Shown here: positions 50,983 through 63,424 of the stretch, in pieces
Layout: each line of letters starts with the position of its first letter
Numbering within the stretch: position 1 is the stretch's first letter
Position numbers and translations under genes: made by a program
Sequence record: PQ471515.1
DNA from: Escherichia phage Turkey3
Direction: 5' to 3' (one strand)
DNA length: 64,000 nucleotides
Notes under the pieces: generated by a model
Databases searched by the model: none
The model's input: only the letters and a program-made list of their open reading frames with translations
What the model was told of the DNA's origin: nothing

Positions 50983-52119
50983 TTAAACTGGTGGAGAATT
51001 ATATGGCTCAAATTTATAAGTTGTCGTAGCAGTACCAGCAATGGCGTTGTTAGCTAGTATGTACATAGTCCTATAGTCGATTACCACCACAGTAATACTA
51101 CCACCAAAAGCATAGTCTGTTATGTTATTAGTGTTGAATGGTAAATTAGATGAACTGGTCCATGTATTAGCTGTTGTGCTATTTGTACCATTGGAATAGC
51201 CGACACTAGATGCACCAGTTGTCCATAAGTTTCCATCATTGAACAACGATACATGGTTAGCTGTATATGATTTATTAGGTATAGAACTATCAATTGGTGT
51301 ATTCCAAACTTTAGTAACCCATGTTGTAACTGCTGTATTATTAGTAACGCCATTACCTAATGAACCATTTATTGGTATACCTCTTATATAAGAAGTGTTA
51401 GTACTAGGGTCAACATATCCAAATGTATATGTATCAAATGCAAATTGAAAACAATCAGAACTCGGTAATGTGTACAGTAATGTATATGAAGACGTGTTTA
51501 TTGATGAATTTGTACCGTTCACGCCTTGGTATAAAATACCACTAGCCAATATTTGATTATTATTTTTTGTTATAGTGTTCATTGATGGATATGTTTTCAC
51601 ATCACGCACATCATTAGTCACATATGTTTGTGTTGATAATGCAACGTTACTACCATTACCTATAACCCCTGTATTTGCACCACTCCCATAAAGTGAACCA
51701 TCATTCAAAAGAACCATTGTAACATTACCATTTCCCGTAATTGTTTTAATATTACTAACATCCACCGCAGCAAATACAGTTGATGTTAAATCAGTGAAAC
51801 GTGTATAATGTGATGTTGTGCCATTGATTGGTGTCGCAAAACCAGAATACAATATTCTATTTTCTTTGGTAATAAGGAATGTTCCAGTAACACCATTTGA
51901 ATGGATATCAACAATATTATCTCCCATTAATACCCAATCACTTACGAATGTTGTTGTACCAGTACCTAACCCATGTGTAGTGTTGTAACCACGTCCATAC
52001 ACTCTACCATCACTGAGTAATGTTACCACACATTGACCACCACCACCAAGGATAACTTTTTGGATAGTACTCTTTACTTTTATATTCCCGTACTTAACCA
52101 TTCTTGCAAAAGGTAACAT
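50983..52119 (-). CDS. MLPF-leader paralog 2
   Basis: 378 aa; MLPFARMVKYGN; Gly/Thr/Asn-rich body with GxGxG motifs; RBS only (co-transcribed with paralog 3). Confidence 0.8.
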   Translation of the reverse strand: MLPFARMVKYGNIKVKSTIQKVILGGGGQCVVTLLSDGRVYGRGYNTTHGLGTGTTTFVSDWVLMGDNIVDIHSNGVTGTFLITKENRILYSGFATPINGTTSHYTRFTDLTSTVFAAVDVSNIKTITGNGNVTMVLLNDGSLYGSGANTGVIGNGSNVALSTQTYVTNDVRDVKTYPSMNTITKNNNQILASGILYQGVNGTNSSINTSSYTLLYTLPSSDCFQFAFDTYTFGYVDPSTNTSYIRGIPINGSLGNGVTNNTAVTTWVTKVWNTPIDSSIPNKSYTANHVSLFNDGNLWTTGASSVGYSNGTNSTTANTWTSSSNLPFNTNNITDYAFGGSITVVVIDYRTMYILANNAIAGTATTTYKFEPYNSPPV

Positions 52120-52134
52120 CCTTTTTCTCCTTTA

Positions 52135-53280
52135 TTAATTATTCATACCCTTAGTACTCAATAACACATATTCATATTGTGATGTTGAGTAACCTGGTAA
52201 TAGATCTGTTGAGCTTGAATATATTCCTGTACCATATAATAACCCAGAATTAGATACAACATAACTATTGTCATTATTAATTGCATATCTTGGATTTGAA
52301 TTGTCAGGTATAATTGTATTATTAACAATAAAACTACTGCTATTATTATTAATTCCGGCTCCAGATTTGCCTGTTGAACCTGTACAATACCATTTGTTTT
52401 CATAAAGGACAACAGTTAGGTATGTATCGTTAAAAATGTAACTAGGTGCTGTCGAGAAATTTGGGAGTTTATATAAAGTTGTTCTACCTACTTCACCAAT
52501 ATTGTTACTTTTAACTCCATTCCCAAGTTGACCATTAAACTGTGAACCTGCACAATATAAACCATCAGATTTAGAAATAAAGAAACAATTAATATTAGCA
52601 GTAAAATCAATTACATCAGAACTTATTAATTTTTTTGAACTCACTGTTTTAGTTCCTAATATCTGACCAACACTTCCATTTCCACACCCGTAAAAATCAT
52701 TTGAAGTATCCAAATACCAAAAAGTACCCGTTTGTTCTGGACTTAGGGAAATTTTTTTGGCATTCGTGTATACTGTGTTTAATTGGAATGCTCGTGCTCC
52801 AGTACTACCATGTTGGCCTGAATAGTTAATACCTCCACTGTAAACTTCTCCAGATGACGCTAGTGCGAAAATATCATATCCATTTAGAGCAACATCAACG
52901 ATTTGTTCTGGATTTAAACCAGCATTAATAAAAGTAGTTGTTCTGTCAGTGAATGTGGTAGTTGATGATGCTGTACTTCCAGTTAAGCCACGAATAGATC
53001 CACTTGAAAGAACTCGGTTGTCAAATGTTGTACAAATCGTAGTACCTGAATTACTCCATATATTTTTTATTCCAGTTGTACTTAAAACCCAATCACCAGT
53101 ATATATAGTATTACTGGCTGAACCATTACCAAACGTACTACCTAAGTTTTGACCTCTTATGTATAAATCCCCACTATCAAGTAGCACCATACAATATAAA
53201 CCTCGTGCAACAATCTTTTTAATACCTGGCAATGGCTGCACTTCATTTCCGTAATCAAACATTCTAACAAAAGGTAACAT
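52135..53280 (-). CDS. MLPF-leader paralog 3, RCC1-like
   Basis: 381 aa; MLPFVRMFDYGN; NGQLGNG, YSGQHGSTG motifs; RBS only (downstream of paralog 4). Confidence 0.8.
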   Translation of the reverse strand: MLPFVRMFDYGNEVQPLPGIKKIVARGLYCMVLLDSGDLYIRGQNLGSTFGNGSASNTIYTGDWVLSTTGIKNIWSNSGTTICTTFDNRVLSSGSIRGLTGSTASSTTTFTDRTTTFINAGLNPEQIVDVALNGYDIFALASSGEVYSGGINYSGQHGSTGARAFQLNTVYTNAKKISLSPEQTGTFWYLDTSNDFYGCGNGSVGQILGTKTVSSKKLISSDVIDFTANINCFFISKSDGLYCAGSQFNGQLGNGVKSNNIGEVGRTTLYKLPNFSTAPSYIFNDTYLTVVLYENKWYCTGSTGKSGAGINNNSSSFIVNNTIIPDNSNPRYAINNDNSYVVSNSGLLYGTGIYSSSTDLLPGYSTSQYEYVLLSTKGMNN

Positions 53281-53292
53281 AATTATTCTCTC

Positions 53293-62094: not shown

Positions 62095-62169
62095 AACTAA
62101 AATCTCCATATAATAATTATAATGTATTTACAAAAAAATACCAGTACGTATTTCAGTACTGGTATAATG
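62095..62169 (-). promoter_or_regulatory. conserved terminator / AT-box / RBS cassette
   Basis: TACCAGTACTGAAATACGTACTGGTA hairpin, T7, TGTAAATACATTATAAT, RBS GGAG. Confidence 0.6.
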
Positions 62170-63351
62170 TTATGGTAAAATAATAGCTTGTAACGAACTC
62201 ATACCCAATGTTGGGACACTCGCCTGTGGTGCTGGTGAATTCAATTTTGGTGATGAAACCGCATATGACATTCCTGAACCCAAATCTGGATCAAAAACTA
62301 CAGCACAATAATTCCCACTATATATAAGTCCATTCTTGTATCCTTGTGCACTTTGAATGCATTTCGTGAACGTACCAATATCTGTAGTGGCATTTATTAA
62401 GTTCCTCCCACGATAACCGCAGGTGTATATGAAATTATCATCGCCTATGTACATACTAGAATCCCCAGAAGAACTACATAGATACGACATATAAGCACGC
62501 ATGTTTTTAGGAGCAACTGACAATGTACCTGCATAGAATTTATTATTCGAACCCGTAATATCACCATCACCCAATGCACCAAAACTTCCCCAGCCAGTAC
62601 CGTAATATCTCTTATCACTCAAAAATATAATACAGTTGTTATTACACATCTTGATTTGATATATCAATGAAGGATCAACCCCAGGGAATGATTCAGTGAA
62701 TGTTAGAACAGCCGGATCAGTACTAGCATTACATTGATGATATGTATTAGTACCAGCGGACAAGATTGTTCCATTAGCTAACAGAATTCTCGCAGTACCA
62801 GTACCAGCAGTACAAGCAACTGCACTTCCTGCACTTCCGGTGTATATTTGTCTGAAAGTAAAGAAACCAACAGTTTTACTTCCCTGCCCACTCCAACCAG
62901 TATTATCAACTCCACACGCCCATACTGAACCATCTTGCATGATCATCATTACACCAAAGCGTTCTATTGAAATATAAACAATCTTCGTTGTATCAACTGC
63001 ACTAAATCTAGAAGTTATATCAGTCCATACCTTAACACTTACCGCCGTCGCACTGGAAGTAGGATCTTCACCAGCTATCATTATCCTCCCATTGTTAGTA
63101 AGATACATTGTCTGACTATAACCAGTACTACAAAACTTAACACTATCAGTCTCTGGAACTTTTAACCACTCGTTGTAACGTGTTACGTTAGTGTTATTAC
63201 CTAACTGATAATAGTTATTCATCCCAGATACATATAACACACCATCCTTTATTAAACTATAAGTCGCACTATAGTCACTACAGGTATAACGTGTACCCAC
63301 AGGTCGCTCAACGACGTTCCCATAATCAAACAATCTAACAAAAGGTAACAT
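62170..63351 (-). CDS. MLPF-leader paralog 12, RCC1-like
   Basis: 393 aa; MLPFVRLFDYGN; NYYQLGNN, FGALGDG motifs. Confidence 0.8.
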   Translation of the reverse strand: MLPFVRLFDYGNVVERPVGTRYTCSDYSATYSLIKDGVLYVSGMNNYYQLGNNTNVTRYNEWLKVPETDSVKFCSTGYSQTMYLTNNGRIMIAGEDPTSSATAVSVKVWTDITSRFSAVDTTKIVYISIERFGVMMIMQDGSVWACGVDNTGWSGQGSKTVGFFTFRQIYTGSAGSAVACTAGTGTARILLANGTILSAGTNTYHQCNASTDPAVLTFTESFPGVDPSLIYQIKMCNNNCIIFLSDKRYYGTGWGSFGALGDGDITGSNNKFYAGTLSVAPKNMRAYMSYLCSSSGDSSMYIGDDNFIYTCGYRGRNLINATTDIGTFTKCIQSAQGYKNGLIYSGNYCAVVFDPDLGSGMSYAVSSPKLNSPAPQASVPTLGMSSLQAIILP

Positions 63352-63424
63352 AATAAAATCTCCGTAATTAAATTATATAGTATTTACAAAAAATACCAGT
63401 ACATATTTCAGTACTGACCTATTA
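63352..63424 (-). promoter_or_regulatory. conserved terminator / AT-box / RBS cassette
   Basis: CAGTACTGAAATATGTACTGGTA hairpin, T-run, TGTAAATACTATATAAT, RBS GGAG. Confidence 0.6.

Follow-up and report, generated by a model that had tools for sequence, protein, structure and literature searches.

Terminator and predicted late-promoter spacers in a tandem virion gene array of Escherichia phage Turkey3

The DNA considered here is a 64,000-nucleotide (nt) stretch of Escherichia phage Turkey3 (PQ471515.1; the window), in which a tandem array of minus-strand genes for virion-associated proteins is interrupted, over 50983-63424, by spacers of nearly constant length and composition. Autonomous gene units are known from lambdoid morons, described by Hendrix and colleagues as extra genes with their own promoter and terminator, usually expressed from the prophage and not encoding virion proteins. 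The array units resemble them as promoter-gene-terminator units that could be added or removed without disturbing their neighbours, but they are paralogous late virion genes of a lytic jumbo phage. In the SP6/K1-5/K1E group, tailspike or tail-fibre genes are exchanged behind a conserved N-terminal adaptor. The array likewise has variable binding domains after a constant N-terminus, with exchange junctions inside the constant part or between genes; it differs in its up to 15 tandem units per genome, its 12-residue tag and its beta-propeller bodies.

Late promoters of phage T4 (TATAAATA; gp55, gp33 and the gp45 clamp) are comparable in consisting of a lone AT-rich element of the -10 type, without a -35, before virion genes, and a gp55-like gene is present in a relative of the phage studied here. 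They differ from the array in that the core is here TAAATA or aTAAATA with a TATA-like stretch 3-4 nt on, and in that no homologues of gp33 or gp45 are reported for this phage group in the paper on CBB (PMC5259590). Transcription from a T4 late promoter depends on these proteins and begins about 6-7 nt past the element. For CBB (35 sites) and GAP32 a late motif ATAAATA was predicted by MEME and compared with T4 TATAAATA (PMC5259590). Motif, position relative to structural genes and phage group are the same as here; the paralog array, which CBB lacks, the fused terminator-promoter spacer and the layout of head and follower genes are not described in that paper. The records of phages G17 and UE-S1 carry the same hairpins at the same intergenic positions, and neither annotates a promoter or states a unit structure.

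Over window positions 14000-38000 the sequence is 99.3% identical to vB_Ec-M-J (OQ718158, genus Asteriusvirus) and about 85% identical to 121Q and PBECO4; by sequence identity the phage is an Asteriusvirus, a 121Q/PBECO4-like jumbo coliphage of the Rak2-like kind. Phage records cover just 9-31% of the array at 50983-63424 (among the matches listed, 25 of 36), which marks the array as a hypervariable island, the rest of the jumbo-phage genome being conserved. A literature search on 121Q-like phages, for transcript data and RCC1-like virion proteins, returned only the papers on CBB, phAPEC6 and PA5oct.

We consider it likely that spacers combining a terminator with a T4-type late promoter, the latter probably read by a gp55-like sigma factor, divide this late virion array into exchangeable units. 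In related phages, terminators as well as the late motif had been predicted before, and the biology of the array is real but ordinary.

Genes, spacers and hairpins of the array

Thirteen array genes, all on the minus strand, were recognized from a listing of open reading frames (ORFs) and by direct reading, every product starting MLPF[AVG]R..[YF]GN. They are tandem genes for late virion-associated proteins, in which RCC1-like, Kelch or glycine-rich bodies follow a constant 12-residue N-terminal tag. The genes are as follows.

49098-50222, minus strand: paralog 1, outside the range 50983-63424, with its own late box (50239-50253) and its own terminator (49067-49093)
50983-52119, minus strand: paralog 2, RCC1-like beta-propeller; follower, 15-nt gap, TAAAGGAG
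52135-53280, minus strand: paralog 3; follower, 12-nt gap, TAG-GAGAG
53293-54411, minus strand: paralog 4; head of unit 4-3-2
54482-55831, minus strand: paralog 5; singleton; MLPF start at 55831, ORF list reaching a TTG at 55867
55903-56640, minus strand: paralog 6, glycine-rich with the shared N-terminal tag, phrog_4474 (function unknown); singleton
56711-57844, minus strand: paralog 7, RCC1-like; singleton
57923-59032, minus strand: paralog 8; follower, 9-nt gap, TAA-GGAG
59042-59932, minus strand: paralog 9, Kelch beta-propeller; head of unit 9-8
60006-60953, minus strand: paralog 10, Kelch beta-propeller; follower, 10-nt gap
60964-62094, minus strand: paralog 11; head of unit 11-10; start taken as the MLPF ATG at 62094
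62170-63351, minus strand: paralog 12, RCC1-like; singleton
63425-63964, minus strand: paralog 13, 3' part; the array runs on past the window end

Mechanical ORF calls overextend two of these genes, paralog 11 to an ATG at 62109 that overlaps the ribosome-binding site (RBS) and paralog 5 to the TTG at 55867; judged from the tag, translation most likely begins at 62094 and 55831.

The spacers before paralogs 4, 5, 6, 7, 9, 11 and 12 measure 70, 71, 70, 78, 73, 75 and 73 nt, the 75 nt of paralog 11 presuming the start at 62094. Their order is stop codon, 5-15 nt, hairpin, T-run, TAAATA-N3-TATAA[T/A], 8-14 nt, GGAG, 6-9 nt and ATG. Gaps of 12, 15, 9 and 10 nt separate paralogs 3, 2, 8 and 10 from the stop before them, which their GGAG touches or almost touches. 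A sequence-only reading of the window had assigned the full upstream cassette to the first seven genes, with coordinates that are all correct, and an RBS alone, at 9-15 nt, to the last four, as the measured gaps confirm; the sequence itself yields its units 4-3-2, 9-8 and 11-10, with 5, 6, 7 and 12 as singletons.

In the proposed mechanism the constant spacer of about 70 nt would split the array into short transcription units. An intrinsic terminator, hairpin and U-run, would stop the upstream unit, and within about 5 nt of it a T4-type late promoter, with a TAAATA core and no -35, would start the next one, the TATA-like stretch 3-4 nt past TAAATA probably spanning the start site and GGAG, the last element of the spacer, acting as the putative RBS. 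Host core RNA polymerase with the phage gp55-like late sigma would most likely read this promoter. The followers would have lost the spacer, or never had it, and would be co-transcribed with their head gene; the fusion of stop codon and RBS makes their translational coupling probable.

The predicted terminators of the array are the following.

50958-50976, minus strand: terminator of unit 4-3-2, GCCAGTAC-TAT-GTACTGGC then TTTTCTTTT; -12.4 kcal/mol, z -5.3; convergent with the plus-strand gene 50300-50950
54457-54475, minus strand: terminator of paralog 5, followed by a T-run; -12.4 kcal/mol
55878-55893, minus strand: weak terminator of paralog 6, CAGTAC-TTGA-GTGCTG then a T-run; -6.9 kcal/mol, z -1.1
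56686-56704, minus strand: terminator of paralog 7; -12.4 kcal/mol
57890-57908, minus strand: terminator of unit 9-8; -10 kcal/mol
59975-59999, minus strand: terminator of unit 11-10; -16 kcal/mol
62138-62165, minus strand: terminator of paralog 12, long-loop class B; -14.5 kcal/mol
63395-63418, minus strand: weak terminator of paralog 13; -8.1 kcal/mol, z -1.7

The inverted repeat CAGTAC-N3-9-GTACTG has 6 matches in the window, with 0.02 expected. Together with the hairpin of paralog 1 the window contains nine such hairpins, with folding energies of -6.9 to -16 kcal/mol; seven of the nine, and six of the eight listed above, beat all 200 shuffles. The exact pair CAGTAC...GTACTG is present in five of the eight, the other three having GTGCTG or ATACTG as the 3' arm, and the literal octamer CAGTACTG is confined to the long-loop class. 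In the minus-strand transcript all nine are followed by UUUUCUUUUU or by six to seven U, in some cases after one or two other bases. The plus-strand tails read AUUAUAUU or AUUAAUUUUAAUU, without a U-run. Convergent genes flank only two of the nine (49067-49093 and 50958-50976), both of which have a poor U-tract on the plus strand; the other seven face no incoming plus-strand gene. The hairpins had been taken to be bidirectional, which this distribution contradicts, with U-runs on the transcribed strand only and at best two hairpins at convergent junctions. They had also been said to be built on CAGTACTG; each unit does end in a hairpin and the description holds, but the word is a hyper-abundant palindrome spread over the genome and is not an array signal.

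Comparison of 62 cassettes from six phages (55 of them distinct) gave loops that vary from 3 to 8 nt while the stems stay conserved. Across the phages no strong compensatory covariation was found, the stems being near-invariant save for an outer-pair change from G-C to A-T and G-U wobbles. Before the first gene of each array the 3' arm of the hairpin has decayed; no upstream gene needs terminating there, so that these sites are a natural control favouring a terminator role. In the G17 record (vB_EcoM_G17, MK327931) ARNold terminators of about -12 kcal/mol are annotated at the homologous sites, and in that of UE-S1 (ON568341) the homologous hairpins are annotated as terminators, together with a 104-nt repeat over the cassette. 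The identification of the array hairpins as intrinsic terminators is supported by these features, from which efficient termination would be predicted.

As to the products, mass spectrometry of phAPEC6 virions detected eight array-type proteins, named 'DNA condensation' proteins (PMC7247149, Table 1), in line with late expression, and GAP32 gp1 is a virion protein. DNA condensation by the RCC1-like proteins, as proposed by the phAPEC6 authors (PMC7247149), receives no support from the present analysis. Paralog 12 gave only weak matches in PDB to eukaryotic propellers (RCC1, HERC2, RPGR, UVR8) and none to a phage structure, and the glycine-rich paralog 6 had no PDB or Pfam match. The 12-residue tag, MLPFxRxxxYG[ND], is common to otherwise unrelated bodies (RCC1-like, Kelch, glycine-rich and a 210-residue GAP32 virion protein). 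It is found at 49098-63964 of the window (minus strand) and in GAP32_001 and GAP32_002, and is thus conserved across genera; it looks like a candidate docking peptide for a common virion site.

The late box and its sigma factor

The AT-rich element of the spacers, termed the AT box or late box, was located by direct reading and motif search. Before the array heads and singletons, and before one gene outside the array, its positions are:

54429-54443, minus strand: late box of paralog 4, TAAATATAGTATAAA
55848-55862, minus strand: late box of paralog 5, TAAATATAGTATAAT
56658-56672, minus strand: late box of paralog 6 (direct reading, motif search)
57862-57876, minus strand: late box of paralog 7 (direct reading, motif search)
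59951-59965, minus strand: late box of paralog 9, TAAATACATTATAAT
62116-62130, minus strand: late box of paralog 11 (direct reading, motif search)
63372-63386, minus strand: late box of paralog 12, TAAATACTATATAAT
14539-15696, minus strand: lone virion structural gene, not a paralog (phrog_10468), with box TAAATACATTATAAT at 15719-15733 and a terminator at 14513-14531

Allowing at most one mismatch, TAAATANNNTATAAT has 14 matches in the window against 3.45 expected, a number reached by 0 of 100 shuffles. A scan of 46-64 kb for sigma-70 promoters (at least 9 of 12 matches) gave none on the AT boxes and a total below that of the shuffles. The sequence at proper -35 spacing from TATAAT is CTTTTC or TTTTCT and not TTGACA-like, and direct reading found no TGn extended -10 at the boxes, the bases before TATAAT being TAG, CAT or CTA. 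Promoter scan and direct reading agree in this with the earlier description of the AT box as lacking a correctly spaced sigma-70 -35 and containing TAAATA.

A search for the AT-box motif elsewhere in the complete genome had been suggested as a check. The complete genome of vB_Ec-M-J was put together from its record, and the 90 nt 5' of its annotated genes were read for TAAATA, with a chance expectation of about 0.02 per start. TAAATA precedes 32 of 43 structural-gene starts, among them those for tail sheath, tail tubes, tape measure, major capsid, tail fibres and baseplate wedge, as compared with 0 of 49 early terminal-repeat gene starts and 4 of 33 of the replication type. Outside the array the sites have the form aTAAATA, then a TATA-like stretch 3-4 nt on, with A before TAAATA in 22 of 32. 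The window is depleted in TAAATA (48 sites against 123 +/- 9.6 expected from dinucleotide shuffles), the behaviour expected of a signal that is presumably selected against where it is unwanted. TAAATA and genes have the same orientation by 19 to 6 in RaK2 and 15 to 1 in CBB.

Within the 62 long spacers of the six phages TAAATA is invariant, and the downstream hexamer drifts to TATAAA, TATAAC, TATTAT and TATGAT; in a -10 element for sigma-70, changes at that final T would be crippling. Perfect TATAAT is found in eight of the nine window spacers read, paralog 1 included. In GAP32, a Cronobacter phage of another genus, both MLPF-tagged genes have TAAATA and an RBS, and GAP32_001 has a terminator upstream and no TATAAT. 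The occurrence of an identical box before the non-paralog virion gene 14539-15696 lends independent support to its role as a promoter. That gene sits inside the plus-strand early block, and its terminator is not AGTACT-based. The proposal that the AT box is a late-type promoter is supported, TAAATA being tied to structural genes, depleted elsewhere and equal to the published late motif; activity and late timing of the boxes would follow from these associations. Further copies of TAAATA fall within the coding sequences of paralogs 1, 4 and 9 (50126-50131, 53693-53698 and 59488-59493, minus strand), the copy in paralog 9 reading TAAATAAATTTTATATAAT about 450 nt upstream of the follower paralog 8; these copies may act as late promoters within genes or be there by chance.

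The sequence-only reading had made the AT box dependent on a phage-encoded sigma factor within the window:

20471-21436, plus strand: sigma factor gene, RpoD/RpoS-like, regions 2 and 3 with alignments into region 4; in the early-promoter block

Pfam Sigma70_r2 and Sigma70_r3 match the product above cut-offs, with no separate region-4 Pfam match, and the protein aligns to RpoS residues 94-325 of about 330 and to sigma-70 residues 328-596 of 613. A sigma factor reaching region 4 should need a -35, which the AT box is without. The gene lies amid 23 promoters of the form TTGAC-N16-19-TATAAT, all on the plus strand at 3.9-45.8 kb and none in the array, against 0.9 expected in the window, and a separate gp55-like sigma exists in a relative. 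The supposed dependence is not supported by these findings: this sigma probably does not read the AT box directly, and any dependence on it is probably indirect, via a cascade.

The relative's gene is EcMJ_325 of vB_Ec-M-J, which is annotated as 'sigma factor for late transcription', adjoins baseplate genes and matches the PHROG late-sigma families phrog_12791 (9e-153) and phrog_234 (1e-16). The CBB homologue, CBB_244, was reported to be gp55-like with a match to the T4 gp55 model PHA02547 (PMC5259590). The gp55-like assignment rests on the PHROG families, the record annotation and the match reported for CBB_244, and the gene, which lies outside the window, is known from the 99%-identical relative. 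For a T4-like promoter that has only a -10, a gp55-like protein is most likely the natural reader.

EcMJ_325 is itself preceded by GGGACAAAGACGTTTTTGGTGCTATAAT, a promoter of the bipartite extended -10 type; the same type recurs before the gene for primase and, with some different bases around its -10, before that for topoisomerase. In general form this third promoter class is GGACAAA-N13-TG(C/A)TATAAT, found before late-sigma, primase, topoisomerase and protease genes (OQ718158 191590-191672; window 21476 and 6474), and it is a candidate target of the RpoD-like sigma of the window. A three-step cascade from host sigma-70 to the RpoD-like phage sigma to the gp55-like sigma is plausible.

Exchange of whole genes and competing explanations

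The window is collinear with vB_Ec-M-J at 49000-52142 and 60916-64000, and the 8.8 kb between are replaced. In this interval (52143-60915, against OQ718158 336248-344715) the eight genes of paralogs 3-10 are swapped for unrelated paralogs, with flanks that are 98-99% identical. Homology blocks shared with five other arrays have 16 internal ends, every one of them at -45 to +75 nt of a paralog ATG, where roughly 10% would be expected by chance, and these ends cluster 36 nt into the coding sequence; the first 38 nt of paralog 10 form such a boundary with vB_Ec-M-J. Paralog 2, a follower here, has as its ortholog EcMJ_572 of vB_Ec-M-J, a head gene with a full cassette. Homology starts and stops at the spacer and the first 12 codons, which points to whole genes as the units of exchange; each swapped gene would bring its own terminator and the next promoter. 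Recombination may be the cause of these boundaries.

On the preferred reading, the spacers provide a transcription map of the most variable genome part for this phage group and correct a tempting mis-assignment of the sigma factor. Each surface-protein gene would be an insulated late unit, which fits a roughly independent expression of each paralog, and units could be gained, lost or swapped without breaking their neighbours. For the engineering of host range in jumbo coliphages, the prediction would be that a foreign binding domain set behind the 12-codon tag and the cassette is expressed late, and it might also enter the virion.

Several points weigh against this reading. Two of the hairpins (55878-55893 and 63395-63418) are weak. 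The array boxes read TTAAATA or GTAAATA and share just 6 of 8 bases with T4 TATAAATA (TAAATA boxes overall share 6 or 7), and the perfect TATAAT in most of them may allow some recognition of the sigma-70-family kind. EcMJ_325 had no Pfam or NCBIfam match, and a PDB search with it gave a spurious PTS enzyme I only and no T4 gp55. In the paper on CBB no homologues of T4 gp33 or gp45 were found (PMC5259590), and the T4 activation mechanism may for this reason not apply. BLAST ends must coincide with loss of conservation, so that the block boundaries demonstrate modularity and not a mechanism of recombination. The searchable literature is without transcript data for any Asteriusvirus.

Direct recognition of the AT box by an RNA polymerase with the sigma of 20471-21436 is improbable, even if the gene encodes a real sigma-70-family factor, phage RpoD-like sigmas of altered specificity exist, and TATAAT is perfect in eight of nine spacers. 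Alignments of this sigma to RpoD and RpoS through region 4 lead one to expect a -35, and neither a -35 nor TGn is present; its gene sits among canonical -35/-10 promoters, there is a separate late sigma of the gp55-like kind, and the GGACAAA-N13-TGnTATAAT class is the better candidate target. In orthologues the final T of TATAAT becomes A or C, and TATAAT is missing at GAP32_001, whereas TAAATA is present in every long spacer. The same hexamer could serve as a plain -10 for host sigma-70, with units that are weakly constitutive or early and TAAATA an incidental AT-rich stretch; TATAAT is the perfect consensus, and AT-rich upstream DNA can partly replace a -35. We regard this as very unlikely, since the boxes have neither a -35 nor an extended -10, the last T of the hexamer is not conserved, TAAATA is linked to structural genes and depleted elsewhere, and the products of related arrays are virion proteins. 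A T4-type late promoter probably read by a gp55-like sigma is preferred to both.

The hairpins, rather than terminating transcription, might mainly act as 3'-end stabilisers, as processing sites in read-through transcripts, or as DNA or RNA sites for a factor that recognises AGTACT. AGTACT is the commonest hexamer genome-wide and shows codon-level selection, terminators by late genes outside the array are without AGTACT stems, and two array hairpins are too weak to convince as terminators. Such a role is nevertheless unlikely in view of the U-run after every hairpin on the transcribed strand only, the retention of stems while loops drift, and the decay of the 3' arm where no upstream gene needs terminating; moreover, AGTACT spacing is Poisson-like without an excess of close pairs, and the terminator of GAP32_001 is not AGTACT-based. 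Hardly any credence is given to the view that the similarity of the spacers reflects nothing more than recent tandem duplication or gene conversion, with no bearing on function. Cassettes are near-identical within a genome and have genome-specific variants (CTTTCTTATTTG in G17; class B dominant in EJP2), as this view would have it, but the flanking protein bodies are beyond recognition by BLAST at the nucleotide level where the spacers are about 90-100% identical, and the same elements occur before unrelated late genes and in another genus.

The AGTACT palindrome and the early block

In the window CAGTACTG is the most frequent octamer (40 sites) and AGTACT the most frequent hexamer (167 sites). 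The vB_Ec-M-J genome contains 256 sites of CAGTACTG, its most frequent octamer, against about 4 expected, and 1125 sites of AGTACT, its most frequent hexamer, at 8.8 times expectation; the next 6-bp palindrome reaches 2.4 times. In the same genome AGTACT occupies all three reading frames: AGT-ACT is used for Ser-Thr 399 times where 118 are expected, GTA-CTN for Val-Leu 375 times where 143 are expected, and TAC for Tyr in 81% of AG_T contexts against 34% elsewhere. AGTACT is likewise about 7-fold in excess in 25-kb samples of RaK2 and CBB, and across three genera of Rak2-like jumbo phages no hexamer is commoner; it is often extended to CAGTACTG. On these counts AGTACT is evidently under codon-level selection across Rak2-like phages, which is more surprising than the array finding. 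No paper describing the abundance of AGTACT or CAGTACTG in phages was found in a literature search, which gave primer and miRNA noise only; the HIP1 palindrome of cyanobacteria is a comparable, highly iterated palindrome.

The idea that the palindrome generally forms hairpins was dropped, because AGTACT spacing genome-wide is Poisson-like with no surplus of close pairs (71 against 78 expected). It is doubtful that the array hairpins are one use of a genome-wide AGTACT/CAGTACTG system, read on DNA or RNA by a phage or host factor. If they were, an AGTACT-reading factor would act both on terminator stems and on early-promoter spacers of the form TTGAC(A/T)-N8-9-CAGTACTG then TATAAT, and the expression or exchange of virion-surface modules would be tied to a phage-wide signal comparable to HIP1.

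Early promoters with CAGTACTG in the spacer were seen at 5410, 5894, 7546, 23835, 28146 (TAGTACTG) and 39012 of the plus strand; in them TTGAC(A/T)-N8-9-CAGTACTG is followed by TATAAT at once or 1 base later. A fused terminator-promoter cassette, AAAAAGGGTTGACTTCGGTCAGCCCTTTTTGCTATAAT, is present in seven copies on the plus strand (29925, 33519, 36562, 40859, 41582, 42966 and 45726). Its TTGAC -35 lies in the 5' arm of a hairpin with a TTCG loop, and between this and a TGnTATAAT -10 the T-run serves as spacer; with a terminator followed by a promoter, these cassettes give the early block the layout seen in the late array. GC-only 6-bp palindromes (GGGCCC, GCGCGC, CCGCGG) have 0 sites in vB_Ec-M-J against about 12 expected. 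An Rfam scan of the whole window matched 7 tRNAs only, with zero matches within the array; the seven genes form a cluster at 4716-9179 of the plus strand, where vB_Ec-M-J is annotated with Ser, Ser, Met, Asn and Thr tRNAs.

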